This document shows, piece after piece, positions 1 through 12,890 of a stretch of 64,000 nt of DNA. The DNA is from Synechococcus sp. (GTDB lineage Bacteria; Cyanobacteriota; Cyanobacteriia; Thermostichales; PCC-7336), in NCBI GenBank assembly GCA_051439425.1, contig JBFRWD010000103.1, positions 1 through 64,000 of the forward strand, read 5' to 3'. The notes under the pieces were generated by a model. It made no database searches. It had not been told where the DNA came from and saw nothing but the letters and a program-made list of their open reading frames with translations. Position numbers and translations under genes: made by a program. Positions within the stretch are counted from its first letter, which is position 1. The number at the start of each line of letters is the position of its first letter.

Positions 1-333
1 AAAAGAACAGCGAAATTGAGATAGCGGGTGGTCTGCAGACAGTGAAATTGAACTGGACACAAACTCTGTAACCGAAATCTAATTGCTCAGCGTCAGGCTA
101 TCACGGATTTCCGGTGGACTCCATAGCCGACACAGATTTGAAGGCGATCGCGATCGGGAGATTTACAAGGTGTAAATGAATCCTTTTCGGTCGCTTGAAA
201 GGCACCAAAGCACTACCAGCAAACTCAAAGGAAGTACGCGAGATATGGCACCAGTGTCACAAACCACTCAAAATATTGAGTGGCCCCGACCATAGAGTCG
301 AGAGACTAAACCCTTACACAATGCTCTAAAAAG

Positions 334-405
334 AGCCCATGACCAGATTTGAACTGGTGACCTCCCCCTTACCAAGGGGGTGCTCTACCCCTGAGCCACA
401 TGGGC
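334..405 (-). tRNA. trnT: tRNA-Thr(GGT)
   Basis: Reverse complement GCCCATGTGGCTCAGGGGTAGAGCACCCCCTTGGTAAGGGGGAGGTCACCAGTTCAAATCTGGTCATGGGCT folds as a cloverleaf, anticodon GGT. Confidence 0.97.
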
Positions 406-417
406 AATGTTTGAAGG

Positions 418-499
418 TGGGCCGAGTTGGATTTGAACCAACGTAGGCATAGCCAGCGGATTTACAGTCCGCCCCCTTTAACCACTCGGGCATCGACCC
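418..499 (-). tRNA. trnY: tRNA-Tyr(GTA)
   Basis: GGGTCGATGCCCGAGTGGTTAAAGGGGGCGGACTGTAAATCCGCTGG...GGTTCAAATCCAACTCGGCCCA; long variable arm; Tyr-Thr tandem. Confidence 0.97.
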
Positions 500-3103: not shown

Positions 3104-3964
3104 TTACGGTTGCTGGATGTGCTGGCAAAAGGCTTGAGCTTGCGCGACATCGTCGATCTCCAACGGATAATCCATGCGAGGTCGGGCAATCGCGATGAGC
3201 TGTACTTTCAGTTCTAGCGCCAGTTCTTGTTTGAGGGCAAAGGCACCGGCTGCACCGGCTTCTTTTGTCACGACTGTAGAAATGTCTAGCGATCTCCACA
3301 ATTGCCGCTCCCGTTCTGTTTGTTCCTCTGGGTGTTGCGCTTGTTCTTGACGTGTTGGCAGCCGCTGCTGGATAAGGCGATCGGGAGGAAAGCCTGCTGT
3401 GAGCGCCTGCTGTCTGGAAGATGTTCCGGGTAGGATTCTGGCCCACAGATGCGATCGCTGGTGCCAATCGGCAAATAGATGTAGCGTTTTCACTCCAGTG
3501 GTTAGAAACACGCGCTGGCGATCGAGATAGTGGGGCTGCAGCACCGCCTCGAAATTGGGGAGCAGCAATGTTTTGGGGTGTAGGGGGAGGCTGGGGCGTT
3601 CGTAGCGCAAGTAGGGGAGGTGGTGGGTTTGGGAGGCTTGGATGGCAAGTTGAGAGATTTGAGTGGCAAAGGGATGCGAGGCGTCGATAATAGCGCGGAT
3701 GGAGTGGGTGGAGAGGAAGCGATCGATCGTGCTTGGGGTGAGCCGCCCTGCTGACACCTGGCCAGGAAGGCTAGTGTACAGTTGGGCGGCAGAGGGCGTG
3801 GCGACCGTCACCCGCCAGGAATATCCCCAGTCCGTTAGGCACTGGGCCATCCGTTTGCTTTCACTGGTGCCACCAATCAGCCAAATAGTCACGGACGGGA
3901 ATCTAGGGTTAGGTGGGTGGATGCTGGATACGTAGGCAATTGGCTGCCAGTCGTTGAAACCCAA
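3104..3964 (-). CDS. cobK: Precorrin-6A/cobalt-precorrin-6A reductase (start may be GTG at 3892)
   Basis: IWLIGGTSES, IIDASHPFA, YLRYERP, VFLTTG, VVTKEAG, IARP. Confidence 0.92.
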   Translation of the reverse strand: MGFNDWQPIAYVSSIHPPNPRFPSVTIWLIGGTSESKRMAQCLTDWGYSWRVTVATPSAAQLYTSLPGQVSAGRLTPSTIDRFLSTHSIRAIIDASHPFATQISQLAIQASQTHHLPYLRYERPSLPLHPKTLLLPNFEAVLQPHYLDRQRVFLTTGVKTLHLFADWHQRSHLWARILPGTSSRQQALTAGFPPDRLIQQRLPTRQEQAQHPEEQTERERQLWRSLDISTVVTKEAGAAGAFALKQELALELKVQLIAIARPRMDYPLEIDDVAQAQAFCQHIQQP

Positions 3965-4133: not shown

Positions 4134-6251
4134 GTGGCATCTTCGGAGTACCGAACTGCTTTCGACAGCAGTTGTTGCTCTAACCCACTGTGTACTGCCT
4201 GTTTGGCATTGATGAGCCCCGTTCCTGCAATTGCCATGATTTCAAGCACTTCTTCCTCCAATCCTAGTACCGAACGAGTGTTGAAAGGACTCGCGAACTT
4301 GCAGTACAAGGAGGGACAACTAAGCCAGTACCTGCAAGCTTTGGCGAGCGAAATGCGTGCAGTTGTGAACGTAGACTGCGTGGCGATTTCCGAAGTGGTT
4401 GACGGTGTCACAGCAACTCTTGTGCAGGAGCCATTAGAGCCCGTTACAGAGAGACTTACCAGTGCTTTATGTGCTGGGGAGAGTGAGCTTGGCAAAGAAA
4501 ATGCGTCCGAGGGGTCACAATCGGCGGGATTTAGCTCCCATTGGGGCCTACCGCTGCAGTCGGTGAATGGAGCGATTGTGGGGGCGCTGGATGTATTCCT
4601 GACTGAAAAGCGCCCGTTTTCAGAGCGAGAACGACTGGTGCTGGAGGTGTTTGCCGAACGGGCAGTGGCGGCGATGGAGCGCGATCGTCTGCAAGCAAAC
4701 CTGTCTCATTTGGACGAAATTGCCAATAAGTTTCACGCGTTGTTCGAACATGCTAACGATGCGATTTTTGCCATCGATCCGAAGCGCGATCGGATCGTAG
4801 AGGTCAACCCGAAAGCTTGCCAGATGCTGGGCTATAGCCGTGAGGAATTGCTGGAATCTGTAGCAATTTCGGATGTACATCCCGATGAAATGCCGCAACT
4901 GATGGCATTCAGTCAGCGGGTAGCGGAGCGGGGACACGGTTGGACCGATCGCCTCACGTGCTTGACCAAGTCTGGCTCAAAAATTCCAGCTGAAATTTCA
5001 GCTGCTGTGGTGGAGCTGGGGGGAGACTCGTACATTTTGGCGTCGGTGCGAAACACTTACGAGCAGCGGCAGCGCATGCAATTAGCACGCTTAAGTTTGG
5101 CGGTGAGCGAGGCATTAGTGCGGGGCAATACGTTGGGTGAAGTGTTGCAGGATTGTGCGGAAGCGCTAGTAGAGCACTTAGATGGCTCTCTGGCCAGGCT
5201 GTGGGTCTTGCAGGAACAGAGCGAGCAGCTCGAACTGGTAGCCAGCGCGGGAATGGTGCAGTCAATCGAGAGCGAATATTGCTCGATTCCGTTGGGGAAG
5301 TGGAAGATTGGCGCGATCGCCCGAAGTCAACGGCCATTCCTTACTAACGAGTTGCTAGAGGATGAAGAGTTTACCGATCGCGACTGGGCAGAGCGGGAGG
5401 GGATTGTCGCGCTCGCAGGGTACCCACTGGTGGTGACGGGGCGACTGGTTGGGATGATGGCGCTGTTTAGTCGCGTTCCGCTGTCGGAGATGACGTTGCA
5501 GGCAATGGCGACGATTGCGAATGGCATTGCGATCGGCATCGATCGCAAGCAGACGCGGCAGAGGGCCATGCAGGCGCTGCGACGGTTGGCAGAGGTTGGA
5601 GAATTAGCGGCGACAATCGTACACGAGGTTCGCAATCCGCTGACGACGGTATTGATGGGGTTAATGTCGTTTAACGACATGGAATTATCGGAGCGGGCGC
5701 AGCGACGGCTGGCACTGGCACAGGAGGAAGCAGAGCGGCTACAGCGGCTGCTGAACGAAATTTTGATGTATGCCAAACCGCAGTCGGTGAAGAAAGACCG
5801 GTTGGAGCTGAATGGACTTATTGCAGAACTTTCCAGGTCGTTGCAAGAGATTCCGCAGGCGCAGGGACGGCAATTGGAGTGTTTGCCTCATGAAGTGGAT
5901 GTACCGTTGAATGGCGATCGTGACAAGTTGAAGCAGGTCTTTATCAATCTGGTGACAAATGCATTCGAAGCGGTGTCGGAAGGGGAGACGGTGCGGCTGA
6001 CGATTGCACCGGATACGCTGTCCACCGGGATTTGCGTGTCGATTTGCAATGGGGGAGATCTGATTCCAACAGATATTTTGTCCAAGTTGACGACACAACC
6101 GTTTTTGACAACAAAGGCGAATGGGAATGGGTTGGGGTTGGCGATCGTGAAGCGGATCGTTGAGGCTCATGCTGGGACGTTCACGATTGAGTCATCTGAA
6201 GAGCTGCAGGGTACGCGAGTGCGAGTGGTCTTTCCAATCGCGCATCAGTAG
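4134..6251 (+). CDS. GAF-PAS-GAF sensor histidine kinase (start uncertain)
   Basis: PAS (LFEHANDAIF...VNPKACQMLGYSREEL), GAFs, H-box IVHEVRNPLT, N-box QVFINLVTNA, G2 GNGLGL. Confidence 0.92.
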   Translation: MASSEYRTAFDSSCCSNPLCTACLALMSPVPAIAMISSTSSSNPSTERVLKGLANLQYKEGQLSQYLQALASEMRAVVNVDCVAISEVVDGVTATLVQEPLEPVTERLTSALCAGESELGKENASEGSQSAGFSSHWGLPLQSVNGAIVGALDVFLTEKRPFSERERLVLEVFAERAVAAMERDRLQANLSHLDEIANKFHALFEHANDAIFAIDPKRDRIVEVNPKACQMLGYSREELLESVAISDVHPDEMPQLMAFSQRVAERGHGWTDRLTCLTKSGSKIPAEISAAVVELGGDSYILASVRNTYEQRQRMQLARLSLAVSEALVRGNTLGEVLQDCAEALVEHLDGSLARLWVLQEQSEQLELVASAGMVQSIESEYCSIPLGKWKIGAIARSQRPFLTNELLEDEEFTDRDWAEREGIVALAGYPLVVTGRLVGMMALFSRVPLSEMTLQAMATIANGIAIGIDRKQTRQRAMQALRRLAEVGELAATIVHEVRNPLTTVLMGLMSFNDMELSERAQRRLALAQEEAERLQRLLNEILMYAKPQSVKKDRLELNGLIAELSRSLQEIPQAQGRQLECLPHEVDVPLNGDRDKLKQVFINLVTNAFEAVSEGETVRLTIAPDTLSTGICVSICNGGDLIPTDILSKLTTQPFLTTKANGNGLGLAIVKRIVEAHAGTFTIESSEELQGTRVRVVFPIAHQ

Positions 6252-6340
6252 CATTCGTATCCATATCAAGCATGGCTTTCGATTTTCTCATGGAAAGTTT
6301 TTTGAAAAAATACAGTGAGATAATACGCGAGAGAAGGTAT

Positions 6341-7864
6341 TCAATCTACCTGCAGTGATTTGATCTTACTGAGCGACTGTAAGGCGTAAGTTGAATAGAA
6401 ACTGAGCTTTAGGAAATTAACTACATACCCTTCCCAAACAAGGTTAGTATCGTCATCGTTCAACTGAAAAAGGTGGCCTGTCTCTCCGTGGGCAAGGGCA
6501 TTCCTGTCCTTGGCCGAGGCTGTTATCAATGACTGTAAATTCGAAAATATATCCCTGTCAATGTCTTTTGAATTATTAAGCCTTCTGTTGATGAACTTGA
6601 GAGCTGAAGGCATCTCTCCAAAAGTGATTTTTCGACTGAACCATCTGCCTTCTTCACCTTCCAAGAAACGGATTGCATCCTCCTCATCAATATTTAGCAT
6701 ATTTGACATTCTCCTAACCGTTGAGTGGAAACCAGTCCATTCCCTCATAAATGAACGTGGGATTTTTTTGTCTTTAGACATGACAGATGATATCTTTTCT
6801 CTTAGTTGACGCTCTAAGTCAACATATTCTTTCAGCAGGTACGATTCTATTTTTTTGTCTTTCTTCTCTACAACCCACTTATATATCACTCTAAGCTTGA
6901 AAACTTTACGTTGCCAACCATCAAAGCTGAAGCATGAAAATAAATCATAAAAATGGGGGGTTAGGCAGTCAATGAAAGCATCTATTTCCTTTTCTTCTTT
7001 ACTATCTTTCTCATATACAATAAAACCACAGTCATGAGATGAACACAGATTTCTTAGAGCGATCTTCCTTTGCGCGCCAGGATTACTGCTCCCAATTGCG
7101 ATCAAGTCACCTTCCTCAACTATTCTGCTTCGGGCAATGTAAGTTTTTATCTTGATTTCCTTGTCCTTAGCGTGTTCCGCGATGACGTCATCAAGACTCC
7201 CACAACTCTCTATAAAGCTACTCGAGTCTGCTTTGACAATGACTCCCTGATGCGTAGCAGTACTATAACTGTAGAATGACATTCTGTATGTGCCAGCCCA
7301 CTCACTATCCTGCCTTGGATTTAAATTGATCTTCTTACTAAGTTTTCTTTTTAGATCCTCAAAAAGAGTATTGCTTGAGGGAAATGGCTCCTCGGCAAAG
7401 ATCCAAAATTTATATAGATACTTGTCTTCTTCTTCGGAGAGATGATTCAGTATCAGACTATCATTCACATTGTTTCTGCCAGAAACTATGGAGTTCATTT
7501 CTTTTTCAGAAAGCAGACAGGGGGCTGTTTTTGGGATAGTCTGCTCTATCCGGTCCTGATACCAAGTATGTATATTATCAACTAGGATGATTCTCCTAGA
7601 GGTGATTTCCTTCATAGAAGAGATTCGTCCAGCTAACTGCCTAACTTCTTCATCACTGGCCCAGATTCGAATCAGTAAATCTAGATCTCCAAAGATTGAA
7701 TAGGCACAAACATTGTGTTTAACCTCTAGGTTGGGCAGTATATTATTTACAACTCGAGTCCCCTTCTCAATTGCATCGTACTTAAATTCCAATAATATAA
7801 AATATAGTCTCTTTCCACTGATGTAGTGCAAGATGGGATGAAATAGTTCTTTTGTTGTGTTCAT
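6341..7864 (-). CDS. Hypothetical protein: Lrp/AsnC-like ferredoxin-fold repeats plus C-terminal HEPN-like (RNALAH) domain
   Basis: 507-aa AT-rich ORF; AYSIFGDLDLLIRIWA resembles the AsnC ligand-binding strand motif; LERQLR...TFGEM...RNALAHG resembles HEPN. Confidence 0.6.
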   Translation of the reverse strand: MNTTKELFHPILHYISGKRLYFILLEFKYDAIEKGTRVVNNILPNLEVKHNVCAYSIFGDLDLLIRIWASDEEVRQLAGRISSMKEITSRRIILVDNIHTWYQDRIEQTIPKTAPCLLSEKEMNSIVSGRNNVNDSLILNHLSEEEDKYLYKFWIFAEEPFPSSNTLFEDLKRKLSKKINLNPRQDSEWAGTYRMSFYSYSTATHQGVIVKADSSSFIESCGSLDDVIAEHAKDKEIKIKTYIARSRIVEEGDLIAIGSSNPGAQRKIALRNLCSSHDCGFIVYEKDSKEEKEIDAFIDCLTPHFYDLFSCFSFDGWQRKVFKLRVIYKWVVEKKDKKIESYLLKEYVDLERQLREKISSVMSKDKKIPRSFMREWTGFHSTVRRMSNMLNIDEEDAIRFLEGEEGRWFSRKITFGEMPSALKFINRRLNNSKDIDRDIFSNLQSLITASAKDRNALAHGETGHLFQLNDDDTNLVWEGYVVNFLKLSFYSTYALQSLSKIKSLQVD

Positions 7865-7926
7865 TAAGTTACAGGTTCTTCAAAGTCAAAAATTACGGGC
7901 ATATTTATGCCCCACCTTTTTAATCG

Positions 7927-8919
7927 TCACACAAACATACTTTCAAGAGTGCTGAAAATGGTGTCGCCTTTATTCCAGAATTTTCTATAGCTGTGTCCAC
8001 CATCCATATAAATTCGATGCCTTTTGAGACTCTCAACACTAGAATTCACTTCATTAAAGTTTCTCAGCTTGTCCAGTAATAGATCGCTTTTTGCTGCGTT
8101 TTCTCTGAAACTAGCTAAGGATATCGAGAGCTTATCTAAAATTTCTTTTGCTGAAATTAAATTGTCGAACGAGGGATTTTTCTTTTCGGACAACCATCTT
8201 CGTTTTATTTCAATTATCTGACTACGCATCCTCTCTTCTAATTCACTTGGTAATTCAGAATCTGATTGAAATGTTTTCTCAAATGATTGAATGTACGATT
8301 CTGGAACTCCTATAGATGAACTCTCAGTATCCGCAGTAGACATTTCTATATCAATGATCTTAGAATGCGCGCCGTCAATAAGAGGACGAGACAAATCCGA
8401 TTTAAGCTCAATGAAGAATTTTCTTACGGTCTTTGTCAGATGCTTACGTAACTTATTCTGAAATTCGGCCAAACTGAGGTATTGTTCGCACAATCCCTTT
8501 GTATGTAAATCTTTTTTGAATTTTTCCAGTCGTATATATTGCTCTGTTTCCATATCATTTGGTGCGATGGGTTGCATCGAAAAATAGGTGAGTACCGGGC
8601 GTCCTTTGCTCATAAACTCTGCTATTTCTTCGACAGTGCCTGAAGGCTGTATTCCTGTTGGTGTACCTAATCTAGTCCAAAAAATTGCAATTAGTAAGTC
8701 GCATCCCGTAACAAGCTGTCTATTTATTATTGCTTGAGCTCTATCACCCATTTCAGGACTACTATCTCTATCCCATGTGACAGGCTGCAAAATTATCTTG
8801 GAACTCATCGAATGGACTGAGTTCCATTCATCAATCAACTCGCGGACAATATCTTTCTCATCATTGATATCTCCAGGCGAAGCAATAAATACTCGTACAA
8901 CTGTTGCTTCATATGTCAT
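7927..8919 (-). CDS. DUF4062 (TIR/nucleoside deoxyribosyltransferase-like) domain protein
   Basis: RVFIASPGD..E, Q.IIN.QL...CDLLIAIFWTRLGTPT...SGTVEE, PVLTYFS. Confidence 0.85.
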   Translation of the reverse strand: MTYEATVVRVFIASPGDINDEKDIVRELIDEWNSVHSMSSKIILQPVTWDRDSSPEMGDRAQAIINRQLVTGCDLLIAIFWTRLGTPTGIQPSGTVEEIAEFMSKGRPVLTYFSMQPIAPNDMETEQYIRLEKFKKDLHTKGLCEQYLSLAEFQNKLRKHLTKTVRKFFIELKSDLSRPLIDGAHSKIIDIEMSTADTESSSIGVPESYIQSFEKTFQSDSELPSELEERMRSQIIEIKRRWLSEKKNPSFDNLISAKEILDKLSISLASFRENAAKSDLLLDKLRNFNEVNSSVESLKRHRIYMDGGHSYRKFWNKGDTIFSTLESMFV

Positions 8920-9337
8920 AGATGAGTGACTCCAACTAATAAATTATCTTTAAATTGCTTGCAGCAATAACTCAAAAAACAGCTAGTGCTACTGAACAAT
9001 TTGCACGTACTAGAGCCGGTTAGGTTAGGGCCGCAAAAAACTTTGATACTACTTGAACGCTATATCTTAACGATTCCAAGAAAAACAAACATTAAAGTTT
9101 TGGGACGTTATCAAATAGCAGAGCACTTTTTTGATGCTTCGAGCACCTTATTCCCCCACACTGCATATGTCAAGTCATGATGAAGGCTTGACATATTTTT
9201 TTAAATATCGAAGCAAGAGAAAGTTACTAAACATTTTGGGCTCAATGCTTCAATCGCACACTTAATATAAGGTCTGGCATTTCCTATGGTTAACTACTGA
9301 AAGTAAGTCTGTTGAAAGAGAAAAAGAAGTTAAGCTT

Positions 9338-11116
9338 CTACATTGAAGTAGGCGCGTGAATGGCTAGCACTCCTTCCAGCAGGTTGAACAGTACCTGCCG
9401 GGTGGCTTCCACCAACGCTAGTCGAGCATTCGCTAGATCGGGAGTCTCTTTGAGAACATCACCCAAAATACGGCAGCGGTCGTAGAACTTGTGGAAGTCG
9501 CTCGCGATCGCTTCCGCTAATCTGACTACCTTGTGAGTCGCACGCTCTTCTGCCGCCCGCTTCAATTGTTCGGGAACTGCCAGCAATGACATCAACAGCT
9601 TGCGCTCTTCCGGCTCTGTGAAAACCAGAGCCCCATCTTTGATAATCTCCGCAGCAGTCGGAACCTCTAACCCTGCTTCTTTCGCCATGCGAATCAGCGA
9701 GCAGCAGCGGGTGTGGGCATACTGGACGTAGAACACGGGGTTGTCATTGGTTTGCTTGACAGCCAAGTCCAGATCGAAATTTACCTGTGAATCAGCAGAG
9801 TTCGTCAACAGGAACCAGCGGGTAGCATCCACTCCAACGCCAATATCCGGATCGTCAATCAGGTCATTGAGGGTAACGAAGTTACCACTGCGCTTCGACA
9901 TCTTCACTTCTTCCCGCTCCCCCGACTCTTCGTTGGTGCGAAATAGCTTTACGAACTGTCCCAGCAACACTTCCAGGCTGTCTGGGTTGAAACCGAATGC
10001 GCCGACGCTGGCCTTGAGGCGGGAGATGTAGCCGTGGTGGTCGGAGCCCAGGATGTTAATCAGGCGATCGTAGCCCCGCTCTAACTTGTCGCGGTGGTAG
10101 GCGATGTCTGCAGCTAGGTATGTACGCTTGCCGTCTCCTTTGACTACGACTCGATCTTTGTCATCGCCAAAATCTCCCGTCTTAAAATAGGTGGCCTCTT
10201 CCGCCCCATCCTTGGCCGTCTCGTCTTGGCGAGCGGCATTGGATGTATAGAGCAATTCGCGAGTCTGTAGGTCTTCGAGGGTGCGGTCAATTTCACTTTT
10301 GTTGTCCTCACCAATCGCGTGCAAGCGGCGTTCGCTAAACCATTGCTCGAAGTCCGTCCCTAACTCGTGCAGGGTGGCTTTCTGCCAATTCAGCAGTTCC
10401 TCATACGCGTATTCTGTGTAGTCTTCAACGGACTCAATCTGAGAGCCATTAGCGACTAATTTCTCTGCCATCTCCACCAAGTAGGTGCCGCGATAGCTTT
10501 CGTCGGGTAGTTCAATGTCTTCGCCCTGTTGCTGCTTCACCCGCACCTGTAGCGATCGCCCCAAATTCTGCATTTGGTTTCCGGCGTCATTAATGTAGTA
10601 CTCGCGATCGACCTCATGACCGGTCCATGTCAGCAAGTTGGCCAATGTAGAACCAATTGCCGCCCAACGTCCGTGACCGACGTGCAAAGGGCCGGTAGGG
10701 TTAGCTGAAACGAATTCCAGCAGGATTTTTTCGGGGGTTGCGGTGGCCGTTTTGCCAAAGTCATCCTTCATGTCGAGGATGAGCTGCAGTTGCTTCTGAA
10801 CGAACGTCGGCCCCAGACGGAAGTTGATGAACCCTGGCCCGGCAATGGAAACTTCTACATCATCAAGTTGCACCTCGGCCGCAATGGCTTCGGCGATCGC
10901 GCGGGGAGACATGCGACAGACCTTGGCCATTCCCAAGGCGTTAGGGGTGGCGTAGTCACCGTAGGTGGTGTCGTTAGGGATTTCGACGGAAATCTTGAGG
11001 GCTTCTAGCTGCTCTTTCTCTTTCAGAGCCCCGAGATTGCCAGCGGCACTGGCTCGGGCGATCGCGTTGTTCAGTTCGGCTGTCAGCAGTTCGGGGATAG
11101 GTGTGGAGGTTGCCAT
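9338..11116 (-). CDS. argS: Arginine--tRNA ligase
   Basis: [17 protein letters not shown] (HIGH), YYINDAG, KMSKR, YVQYAH. Confidence 0.98.
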
Positions 11117-11420: not shown

Positions 11421-12890
11421 TTAGCGGCCGCCGACAGTAATGCCATCTACTTTGATGTGGGGCTGACCAACCGTGACGTAGACACTACCGCTGATGGAGC
11501 CGCAGAAGCCAGCCGCTAGGCCAACATCATCAGCACACATCGAAATCTTGTTCATCACGTCGGTTGCATCGCCAATCAGCACTGCACCTTTGAGAGGTTT
11601 GGACAGCTTGCCGTTTTCAATCAGATAGGCCTCATCCACACCAAAGTTGAACTCGCCAGTCGCGCCAACGCTGCCGCCACCCATCTTCTTGCAGTAAATG
11701 CCCTTATCAATAGAGGCAAACAAGTCGTCCACTGAGTGATTGCCACCACCAATGTAGGTGTTGCGCATACGGCTGGCGGCGGCATAGGTGTAACCCTGGC
11801 GGCGGCCGCTTCCGGTACGGGGGTGGCCGGTGCGCATGGAACCTGCGCGATCGCTAATAAAGTTCTTCAGAATGCCATTCTCAATCAGCAAAGTGCGCTG
11901 CACTGGCATCCCTTCATCATCCATATCGATGGTGCCAAACGCTTCGGGCGACACCCCTTCAGCCCAGGCCGTTAAACTCTCGTGGGCAATCTTCTCTCCC
12001 TTTTTGTCTGCAAATGGTGTGGTCTGGCGCTAAATCTGTGTGGTCTCTAATAAGTGACCACAGGCTTCATGAAAGATAACGCCACCAAACTGGTTGGCCA
12101 TCACAATGGGGTAGGTACCCGACTCCACAAAATCGGCATACAGCATTTTGCCTGCCGACTCGGACACGTCTGCGGCTGCCGAGGTGTAATCCCACCCGCG
12201 CAGGAAGCTGGGGTCGCTGGTGTTGCCGTCCCGACGACCGATGGAAGAACGGTTGTCTCCATCCGCGCACAGCAGGTTGTAACCCACCGATTGAGTCAAG
12301 CGAATATCGCGGGCAAAGGTACCGTCGCTAGCCGCGACTAACACCTCTTGCCAGTCACGGAAATAACTTGCACGGCGCGATTGAATGTGGCTGCCTTGCT
12401 TTTTTAGCTCGCTCGTCCCCGTCAGCAAAATATCGCCCATTTCTTGCATGGAGCTGCAAGCTGGCAACCACGCCTCTTTGCCCTTGATGCTGGCGTAATC
12501 ACGAAACAGCTCAAGGTTGATTTCCGGTACGAACGAACTGGGGCCGGGGACAATCAGGCCCATGATAGACAGGGCTTTTTCTAGCGCAGACTTGAGGCCG
12601 CTAAATGACAAATTATTGGTGCTGACGTAACAATCAGCTTCCCCCACAAACACGCGCACGCCCGCGCCGGTGGAGAGAGCGGGAGAAATGCTGGTGATGC
12701 GATCGTCTTCTGCCAAGCAACTAATGTAGTTACCGCGCTCTAGGAAAAACTCTACAAAATCGGCCCCTGCCGCTCTCCCCAACCCCAATAAGGTAGACAG
12801 CGGTGCCCGCCAGCTTTCATCAAAGCGTTCGGTGGCGAAAGTGTATTTCAGCTGGGGCAGTTCTTTGGAGAGCAGCAATGCTGGGGACAT
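11421..12890 (-). pseudogene. tldD: TldD/PmbA metalloprotease interrupted by in-frame TAG at 12030-12032 (or sequencing error)
   Basis: [37 protein letters not shown] continues in frame into [27 protein letters not shown]. Confidence 0.85.

Follow-up and report, generated by a model that had tools for sequence, protein, structure and literature searches.

Defence proteins built around a DUF4062 domain, also termed NIR, were described in three preprints of 2026 (10.64898/2026.05.01.722283; 10.64898/2026.06.25.731849; 10.64898/2026.09.04.749371), which present the domain as an NADase effector that yields ADP-ribose and nicotinamide. Swarozyc (KpSwz; Osinski et al. 2026, bioRxiv 10.64898/2026.05.01.722283), Evangelion (Eva01-04; Ibarra-Chavez et al. 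2026, bioRxiv 10.64898/2026.06.25.731849) and Vulcan (Le Mouellic et al. 2026, bioRxiv 10.64898/2026.09.04.749371) are portrayed there as single-gene, phage-triggered systems that deplete NAD+ and require both a catalytic Glu and an auxiliary (AUX) domain. These sources place the catalytic Glu at E97 of KpSwz, E98 of Vulcan and E108 of PsAvs2, and report that TEP1 produced no other ADPR derivatives. In KpSwz an N-terminal DUF4062 domain, with its Glu near position 97, is followed by a C-terminal AUX domain that has an HTH/winged fold and binds the portal of the phage. Evangelion proteins combine a DUF4062 core with a diversified AUX domain that is essential for defence (truncation at L177 abolishes it in Eva01), lie on mobile elements and are associated with NAD+ depletion. 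The partner of the NIR domain consists of HEAT repeats in Vulcan and includes STAND and TPR domains in NIR-Avs2, while Vesta is a small NIR protein in a conserved two-gene operon whose alkaline phosphatase partner is dispensable for defence. Signal production by some DUF4062 domains, or their cooperation with partners encoded in the same operon, is raised as a speculation in the NIR and Swarozyc preprints. The word HEPN does not occur in the main texts of the three preprints, which give no HEPN partner for Vulcan, Vesta or NIR-Avs2.

HEPN domains are recognised by the superfamily motif Rx4-6H; N after the motif R and G after the motif H are common in many HEPN families, and such domains occur also in toxin-antitoxin and RNA-processing proteins. 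The AbiD/AbiF proteins (Abi_2), the HEPN-MNT toxins and Csm6/Csx1 share with the second gene of our locus a helical C-terminal domain and the pattern R-N-x-x-x-H. In Csm6/Csx1 an N-terminal regulatory domain gates the HEPN RNase, and we propose the same logic for the second gene. Thoeris, with ThsB as TIR signal maker and ThsA as effector, sets a TIR-type enzyme beside a ligand-gated effector.

Here we describe a locus in a 64,000-nt stretch of Synechococcus sp. DNA (the window), the features of which are collected in Table 1. Because the counterparts of the flanking histidine-kinase gene and argS lie only ∼49 bp apart in a genome of the same genus (G806), compared with 3.1 kb here, window positions 6252-9337 represent an insertion. 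Its GC content is 0.382 over 6260-9330, whereas the window as a whole has 0.515; bins between 6501 and 9000 show 0.36-0.40, most flanking bins having 0.50-0.58. The ORF list and these GC values bear out a sequence-only reading that had placed two co-oriented genes, 62 nt apart, in an AT-rich insert. A 3373-nt Logan contig from another assembler covers 6128-9500 at even depth, although its sequencing run is probably that of the source sample and hence gives no independent confirmation; the insert is real DNA, and an assembly chimera was ruled out because this contig bridges both junctions. A search for the insert ends yielded no clear repeats, whether terminal or direct; the best inverted pair (29 nt, 72%) is AT-rich. 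An Rfam scan of 6100-9500 returned no match. On balance, we think that the insertion is probably a horizontally acquired mini defence island carrying two self-contained abortive-infection genes, most likely independent of each other.

Table 1. Features of the insertion and its flanks (coordinates are positions in the window).
Feature	Position	Strand	Basis or remark
Histidine-kinase gene	4134..6251	+	Insertion flank
AT-rich 3.1-kb insertion	6252..9337	.	Between convergent histidine-kinase gene and argS; genes 1 and 2 are its only long ORFs
Gene 2, 507 aa, tandem ferredoxin-like module plus HEPN-like C-terminus	6341..7864	-	ORF; AF2 model; rare family
Gene 2 helical C-terminal domain, residues ∼289-507, predicted HEPN RNase	6344..7000	-	AF2 helices; HEPN fold matches
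RNALAH, R454...H459, candidate HEPN Rx4-6H active site	6488..6505	-	Invariance in the family
Gene 2 tandem ferredoxin-like module (beta-alpha-beta-beta-alpha-beta x2), residues 1-258, presumed sensor	7091..7864	-	AF2 model; fold matches
Intergenic gap, 62 nt	7865..7926	-	ORF ends
Terminator-like hairpin, 6-bp stem with 4 G-C pairs, then GTAATTTTTG	7912..7897	-	Consensus match only
Gene 1, 330 aa, DUF4062 (NIR) plus auxiliary domain, predicted phage-triggered NADase	7927..8919	-	ORF; PADLOC; relatives
Gene 1 AUX C-terminal domain, residues 170-330, presumed trigger sensor	7930..8412	-	Conservation in relatives
Gene 1 DUF4062/NIR TIR-like domain, residues 7-169	8413..8901	-	Range matching PDC-S60
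SGTVEE, residues 93-98; E97/E98 candidate catalytic Glu	8626..8643	-	Invariance in relatives
argS	9338..11116	-	Insertion flank

Judged from its sequence matches, gene 1 consists of a DUF4062 (NIR) domain followed by a conserved C-terminal auxiliary domain. The PADLOC candidate PDC-S60 matched it with an E value of 1.7e-27, residues 7-169 corresponding to profile positions 4-171 of 906; gene 1 thus covers the N-terminal domain only, and the remainder of that profile is absent from it. We found no mention of PDC-S60 in our literature search. The Pfam DUF4062 model (PF13271) scored 19.5 bits (E 1.1e-3), below its gathering score of 24.7, and many of the 159 relatives of gene 1 carry PF13271 and are named DUF4062, as are the nearest clusters in the ESM Atlas. 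Relatives that possess the DUF4062 domain alone show 40-55% identity to gene 1 over residues 1 to ∼170, and some 15 relatives, each roughly 300 aa long, conserve the AUX domain over its full length (33-39% identity), with W242, D306, G308, S310, F314 and G318 invariant. The motif residues S93, G94, T95, E97 and E98 were unchanged in all 16 full-length relatives. The DUF4062 N-terminus and the SGTVEE stretch proposed earlier are both upheld. Searches of the PDB with the gene-1 profile gave chance-level coiled-coil matches only, and PHROGs gave nothing. Among 21 close-relative genomes the gene-1 family was present in one, the window's own.

By position and motif, E97 or E98 probably equates to the published catalytic Glu of KpSwz and Vulcan, and by analogy gene 1 is predicted to be a phage-triggered NADase whose AUX domain would recognise a phage component, as in Swarozyc, Evangelion and Vulcan. 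The resemblance to KpSwz lies in architecture and motif position and extends to the patchy distribution and horizontal spread of both; unlike Swarozyc, gene 1 has an HEPN-type neighbour. Eva01 is shorter than gene 1 and its 'acidic-SYT' motif (E87-Y88) differs from SGTVEE-I in that Ile, not Tyr, follows the Glu in gene 1. Gene 1 does have the layout of a DUF4062 core plus AUX, and of the Evangelion motif residues (an aromatic at F11, and Q/W/E), F11, Q62/Q68 and W81 are present in gene 1 by inspection of unaligned sequences. With respect to Vulcan, Vesta and NIR-Avs2, gene 1 shares the NIR effector with its presumed catalytic Glu; Pfam returned no HEAT match at E values up to 1, HEAT repeats being hard to detect by sequence. 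Vesta itself was rejected as a counterpart of the locus, gene 2 being a ferredoxin-like plus HEPN-like protein with no phosphatase match.

Gene 2 belongs, as far as sequence searches indicate, to a rare and previously undescribed family that has no curated model. An exhaustive search found 64 relatives among 1.84 billion representatives. The gene had no match in PADLOC (v2), NCBIfam or PHROGs, no curated-level match in Pfam, no match among plasmids and no usable match in the ESM Atlas; word-index protein searches with the single sequence and with the profile returned the query itself only, and BFVD viral structures gave nothing meaningful (TM ≤0.27, large rmsd). In four phylum samples the relatives numbered one in 401 genomes of the host phylum (the window's own copy), one partial match in 401, none in 391 and one weak match in 391, and a search with a narrower alignment (A4) recovered three metagenome loci and none in viral contigs. 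The sequence-only reading would have taken the lack of a PADLOC match as support for novelty; gene 2 has no such match, but gene 1 matches PDC-S60. Literature searches combining HEPN, AsnC and defense returned unrelated papers only, found no use of 'TIR-HEPN' or 'HEPN-TIR', and, for HEPN, TIR, ferredoxin-like and anti-phage, did not show the gene-2 architecture among the matches listed, as judged by title and the start of the abstract.

Among 29 gene-2 relatives, five are fusions with a TIR domain (TIR_2), which lies C-terminally in four and N-terminally in one; all five retain a Glu within a W-x-x-x-E stretch, which we take to be the TIR catalytic position. The TIR domain of one such relative (P0158) matches PADLOC TIR models, for example PDC-S66 and ThsB. 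These fusions run counter to independence of the two genes: they suggest that the gene-2 family recurrently works with NADase-type domains, and a DUF4062 neighbour could supply such a domain in trans.

Structural modelling divided gene 2 into two parts. An AF2 model built with a 63-row alignment reached pLDDT 90.8 and pTM 0.89, superseding a single-sequence fold with pLDDT of only 35. The model shows two tandem NirDL/AsnC-RAM-like ferredoxin-like domains in residues 1-258, over which the two-domain core of NirDL (4ch7/4czc), an AsnC-like siroheme decarboxylase, superposes (VIA-align, 4czc_A: Z 11.2, 206 aligned residues, rmsd 4.3). Other ferredoxin-repeat proteins matched at Z 9-10, the ABM monooxygenase, Cld/HemQ and DyP folds scoring almost equally to NirDL, and Foldseek returned 2pgc, 4ch7 and 5f9p at E 3e-5 to 1e-4. 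The family profile reached the stand-alone AsnC RAM proteins 2e1a and 2cvi in the PDB at E 0.13-0.15, an FGxxDxxxRxW stretch of gene 2 aligning to their RAM motif, and AsnC_trans_reg (PF01037) appeared below threshold in 3 of 63 family members (best E 0.069). The earlier assignment of Lrp/AsnC repeats is in line with the NirDL-like fold of the module. In contrast to Lrp/AsnC regulators, to which its sequence likeness is marginal (E 0.13), gene 2 has no HTH DNA-binding domain: Pfam found no HTH family, and the model begins directly with the first ferredoxin-like domain. Tandem ferredoxin-like and RAM folds commonly bind small molecules, and this pair of domains may be the regulatory or sensing part of the protein.

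The sequence-only reading had joined the two genes into one system in which gene 1 makes a signal that gates the RNase of gene 2, with homologs of both expected to co-occur. We did not observe this. None of 80 gene-1 loci had a gene-2 relative within 6 kb, and none of five gene-2 loci had a gene-1 relative; no TIR or DUF4062 domain was seen in the neighbours of the latter. Since these gene-2 loci were few and short (3.4-6.1 kb), two of them being partial matches, gene-2 contexts are under-sampled. The 51 co-oriented downstream genes of gene-1 relatives were heterogeneous (HsdM, AAA_13, transposases, housekeeping genes), with no neighbour family recurring beyond four related loci. The pairing of gene 1 and gene 2 is therefore not conserved. 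A predicted complex of the two proteins scored 0.00 in two runs, which is evidence neither way. Given the lack of co-occurrence, the literature, in which DUF4062 is known so far only as an NAD+-hydrolysing effector, the PDC-S60 match and the hairpin in the gap, the proposed signalling system is unsupported.

A coupled arrangement nevertheless has points on its side. On infection, gene 1 would convert NAD+ into ADP-ribose or a derivative, and the N-terminal module of gene 2 would bind this product, or sense the fall in NAD+, and so switch on the HEPN RNase; we regard this as unlikely. Such a circuit would be akin to Thoeris or type III CRISPR logic, gene 1 acting in trans in the way that the fused TIR domain does in relatives of gene 2. 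Beyond those fusions, at either end and with the Glu kept, the small-molecule binding common to such modules would suit this arrangement, as would the speculation on signals and operon partners in the preprints and a gap in which no promoter-like site was found. The two genes also share their orientation, are separated by 62 nt, have nearly equal GC (0.38 and 0.39) and between them make up one 3.1-kb insertion, an observation that likewise runs counter to independence. Against coupling stand the failure of the families to co-occur, the conserved AUX domain of the gene-1 family, which stands alone elsewhere, and the terminator-like hairpin between the genes, the fold of the gap being unexceptional (z = -1.35). 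In addition, measurements of DUF4062 products have so far given ADP-ribose and nicotinamide, with no other ADPR derivatives from TEP1. For at least two relatives of gene 2, L083 and L084, the position directly upstream holds no gene of the same orientation. Neither gene matched ThsA or ThsB in PADLOC, and no Thoeris, CBASS or type III CRISPR synthase and no SLOG, SAVED or CARF receptor was found in genes 1 and 2 by PADLOC (beyond PDC-S60) or Pfam. We consequently prefer two independent genes, each of which would have its own sensor and effector.

For gene 2 the effector would be the C-terminal domain, predicted from its motif and helical model to be an HEPN RNase that would cleave RNA once activated. 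The motifs noted earlier (LERQLR at residues 350-355, TFGEM at 414-418 and RNALAH at 454-459, nt 6505-6488) are correctly placed as to R454 and H459, and these two residues form the sole invariant columns in an alignment of 29 relatives of 20-34% identity. N455 and G460 are conserved in at least 90% of the same sequences (RNxLxHG), and R[ND]xxxH occurs in 41 of 42 relatives of at least 430 aa. Because E97/E98 of gene 1 and R454/H459 of gene 2 are invariant among relatives, these motifs are more than chance resemblances. The HEPN fold matches are middling. VIA-align matched the whole gene-2 model to the HEPN entries 1wwp, 7ae2, 8xdj, 1ylm and 3o10 at Z 6.7-7.6 over residues ∼315-507; with Roquin (4txa) included, the scores span Z 6.7-7.8, values which, according to the tool's own caution, helical bundles often reach. 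The Pfam matches all fell below gathering scores: Abi_2 (PF07751) reached 16.1 bits (E 0.014) against a cutoff of 25.6, and among 63 family members sub-threshold HEPN-clan matches were HEPN_MAE_28990 in three and HEPN_RiboL-PSP, Csx1_HEPN and HEPN_Apea in one each.

We gave weight to a reading in which this C-terminus is no nuclease and RNxLxHG serves binding or structure in a bundle that merely resembles HEPN, gene 2 being a ligand-binding regulator. Such modest Z scores are also reported for unrelated helical bundles, the Pfam scores are low as stated, and a sequence search of the PDB with the family profile returned no HEPN chain. Yet R and H are the only invariants across 29 diverged sequences, their neighbours N and G follow the usage of many HEPN families, weak matches to five different HEPN-clan models occur among family members, and structures of HEPN proteins come up repeatedly as matches to the C-terminus, so we hold this reading to be very improbable.

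Equally small is the likelihood that gene 2 is a toxin-type or housekeeping HEPN RNase (toxin-antitoxin-like, RNA-processing or regulatory) that merely hitch-hikes beside a defence gene. The HEPN toxins 7ae2 and 8xdj among its structural matches, the silence of PADLOC and the lack of a clear defence island among the few gene-2 neighbourhoods seen are what one would expect of such a gene. It has, however, neither an MNT-type nor any other antitoxin partner, its companion being a DUF4062 protein; its distribution is sporadic and rare, it came in an AT-rich insert, and its relatives carry TIR fusions, that of P0158 matching PADLOC TIR models. Rarity, insertion, TIR fusions and the missing antitoxin make gene 2 typical of defence rather than housekeeping genes. 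An HEPN-MNT toxin-antitoxin pair was rejected outright, since there is no MNT gene and the DUF4062 protein is the sole neighbour inside the insert. Compared with HEPN abortive-infection and toxin proteins in general, gene 2 shows no match at curated cutoffs and its N-terminus is ferredoxin-like, not CARF, SAVED or MNT-regulated; unlike HEPN-MNT toxins and Csm6/Csx1, it has no antitoxin gene, CRISPR or cyclase context.

Gene 1 would be a further member of the DUF4062/NIR NADase defence proteins, with an AUX domain of its own that is found in at least 15 diverse lineages. Should the two genes instead form a signalling pair, in which ADP-ribose or a derivative is read by the RAM-like module to activate the HEPN RNase and the TIR-fused relatives are the single-chain version, a prospect that we rate as rather poor, no DUF4062 enzyme before gene 1 would have acted upstream of another effector, and the module would be a new kind of fold for sensing immune signals derived from NAD. 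The presence of a predicted TIR-like NADase beside gene 2 offers a simple genetic test of NADase-HEPN cooperation. The greater gain lies in gene 2, which reveals a rare family of ∼500-aa proteins in which a ferredoxin-like tandem is joined to an HEPN-type domain and which, if it is an anti-phage RNase, would add a new type of sensor to the architectures of HEPN effectors.

Genes 1 and 2 are co-oriented and separated by 62 nt within an AT-rich insert (GC 0.382 in 6260-9330 vs 0.515 for the entire window), and on these points, as on the motif positions listed in the table, the sequence-only reading was correct throughout. When a 6-kb query spanning the locus was compared with 20 relatives, the histidine-kinase and argS flanks were matched and the middle never was. 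In G806, a genome of the same genus, both flanks lie on one contig ∼49 bp apart vs 3.1 kb in the window, so that 6252-9337 is an insertion, of which genes 1 and 2 are the only long ORFs. An assembly chimera at the junctions is ruled out by a 3373-nt contig from a second assembler that bridges 6128-9500 at even depth, although its run is probably the source sample. We looked for convincing terminal or direct repeats at the insert ends and found none. Of 21 genomes (the 20 relatives and that of the window), 1 had the gene-1 family; the gene-2 family, absent from the 20 relatives, was identified in 1 of 401 in a sample of the phylum. In both cases the single hit was the window's own copy.

Coordinates of the two genes and of their motifs
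Feature	Gene	Residues	Window nt	Strand	Description
Gene 1			7927..8919	-	330-aa ORF
Gene 2			6341..7864	-	507-aa ORF
SGTVEE	1	93-98			
LERQLR	2	350-355			
TFGEM	2	414-418			
RNALAH	2	454-459	6505-6488		

In a second same-genus genome (L087/L092, G808:C112), the 228 nt past the kinase stop resemble neither the window insert nor the G806 junction, and the contig then ends; this intergenic position between the kinase gene and argS may be a hotspot of variation. In the window, argS and gene 1 are separated by a 418-nt leader, in which a hairpin with a 12-bp stem followed by a T-run (9165-9206, +) adjoins a 64-aa ORF without a family match (8986..9180, +). Elsewhere, a TldD/PmbA-like gene (11421-12890, -) carries a lone in-frame TAG at 12030-12032, directly past a HEACGHLLE motif; read through, it forms a single 489-residue frame, and the interruption could mean that the gene is a pseudogene, that the sequence is in error or that the codon is recoded.

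Gene 1 matches Pfam DUF4062 at E 1.1e-3, under the gathering score, and its residues 7-169 match the PADLOC defence candidate PDC-S60 at E 1.7e-27, an alignment confined to positions 4-171 of a profile 906 positions long. The sequence-only reading had proposed that a lack of PADLOC hits would support novelty; gene 2 has no such hit and gene 1 has one. A word-index protein search returned 159 relatives. About 15 of these are full-length (∼300 aa, 33-39% identity) with both protein halves, and among them the invariant columns include S93, G94, T95, E97 and E98; in their C-terminal half W242, D306, G308, S310, F314 and G318 are invariant. Many further relatives match the N-terminal 165-190 residues only, at 40-55% identity. 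The domain is the subject of three preprints from 2026. Osinski et al. (10.64898/2026.05.01.722283) show DUF4062 to be a TIR-like NADase yielding ADP-ribose and nicotinamide, and single-gene Swarozyc to require both E97 and an auxiliary domain that binds the phage portal. Le Mouellic et al. (10.64898/2026.09.04.749371) rename the domain NIR and show it to be the effector of Avs2, of Vulcan (catalytic E98) and of two-gene Vesta. Ibarra-Chavez et al. (10.64898/2026.06.25.731849) describe Evangelion as single-gene systems with a DUF4062 core and an AUX domain. Gene 1 has the same core-plus-AUX architecture as the published single-gene systems, with the Glu intact. We class it as a new representative of the known DUF4062/NIR-AUX kind and a predicted NADase, and assign it to no named lineage. 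On the Synechococcus elongatus PCC 7942 plasmid pANL (L094), a gene for a DUF4062 protein with 45% identity to gene 1 over residues 1-174 adjoins genes for a HEAT-repeat protein and a BrnT/BrnA toxin-antitoxin pair, a layout resembling the Vulcan architecture in split form.

Gene 2 had no match in PADLOC, NCBIfam or PHROGs and only sub-threshold matches in Pfam (Abi_2, E 0.014; HEPN_Apea, E 0.93). An exhaustive search of 1.84 billion representatives identified 65 proteins at E ≤1e-3, the query included, and 17 at E ≤1e-30; this family has no curated model and was not found described in the literature. The AlphaFold2 model (pLDDT 90.8, pTM 0.89 with a 63-row alignment; pLDDT 35 from sequence alone) shows residues 1-258 as two ferredoxin-like beta-alpha-beta-beta-alpha-beta domains, for which the best structural matches are NirDL, a siroheme decarboxylase of AsnC-like type (Z 11.2, 206 residues, rmsd 4.3), and further ferredoxin-repeat proteins. 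The family profile weakly matches stand-alone AsnC RAM proteins (E 0.13-0.15), and AsnC_trans_reg is found sub-threshold in 3 of 63 members. The proposed Lrp/AsnC repeat appears right as to fold, but the HTH domain is absent. A 452-aa protein at L085 (G749:C1, 649-2007, -) aligns to the family profile solely over its first ferredoxin-like portion (positions 5-154), and upstream of it lies an XRE-type HTH gene (2440-2790, -) matching PADLOC control-protein and RmrA models.

Residues ∼289-507 are helical in the model. HEPN entries occur among their structural matches at Z 6.7-7.8, a range that the tool warns is common for helical bundles; five HEPN-clan models match weakly across the family in Pfam, and the family profile found no HEPN chain by sequence in the PDB. 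In a 29-sequence alignment (20-34% identity to the query) the sole invariant columns are R454 and H459, within the consensus RNxLxHG, and conservation reaches at least 90% at S196, Y198, T241, L273, Y347, E351, N455, G460 and W477. R[ND]xxxH is carried by 48 of the 64 relatives; of the 42 with at least 430 aa, 41 have it, and the one without is a CHAP-domain protein matched by short repeats only. Chiefly because of this invariant motif, and with the fold and Pfam evidence taken together, we consider the C-terminus very probably a HEPN domain.

The sequence-only reading had gene 1 make a nucleotide-derived signal that gates the RNase of gene 2. Co-orientation, similar GC and arrival in one insertion fit such coupling, and its best support comes from TIR_2 domains fused to 5 of 29 gene-2 relatives (best E 9.8e-27), C-terminal in P0132, P0137, P0139 and P0140 and N-terminal in P0158; in all five a Glu is retained within W-x-x-x-E, and the PADLOC models PDC-S66 and ThsB hit the P0158 TIR. 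However, conserved pairing is contradicted by the neighbourhoods. Searched within 6 kb with the gene-2 profile, 80 genomic loci of gene-1 relatives contained no gene-2 relative, while the gene-1 profile found 82 ORFs in the same loci; plasmid copies of gene-1 relatives likewise lacked one. The 51 co-oriented downstream genes were heterogeneous (HsdM, AAA_13, AbiEii-like ATPase, Vsr, transposases, EF-P, MFS and many without a family), and when 294 neighbouring ORFs were compared all against all, no family was common to more than four related loci. Neither a gene-1 relative nor any TIR or DUF4062 neighbour was found at five gene-2 loci, a weak side of the test because these were few and short (three from metagenomes, plus two genomic matches, one of them partial and the other weak). 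Two gene-2 loci (L083, L084) have no co-oriented gene upstream of the gene-2 relative, and the 62-nt gap in the window holds a terminator-like hairpin, short and of unexceptional fold energy. Overall, a coupled system seems unlikely. At another gene-2 locus, L082, a 237-aa ORF (3183-3896, +) lacks a family match and includes a hydrophobic stretch of membrane type; placed 61 nt upstream of the gene-2 relative and co-oriented with it, this ORF is a possible alternative partner. Two overlapping readings, that gene 2 is not a nuclease, against its invariant R454/H459 and alongside its modest HEPN Z scores, or that it is not a defence gene, are more improbable still.

As the most likely reading we somewhat favour a small defence island, acquired horizontally and made up of two self-contained abortive-infection proteins. 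We infer the activities, triggers and expression of both: gene 1 would act as a DUF4062/NIR-AUX NADase and gene 2 as a sensor-HEPN RNase, each responding to a trigger of its own.
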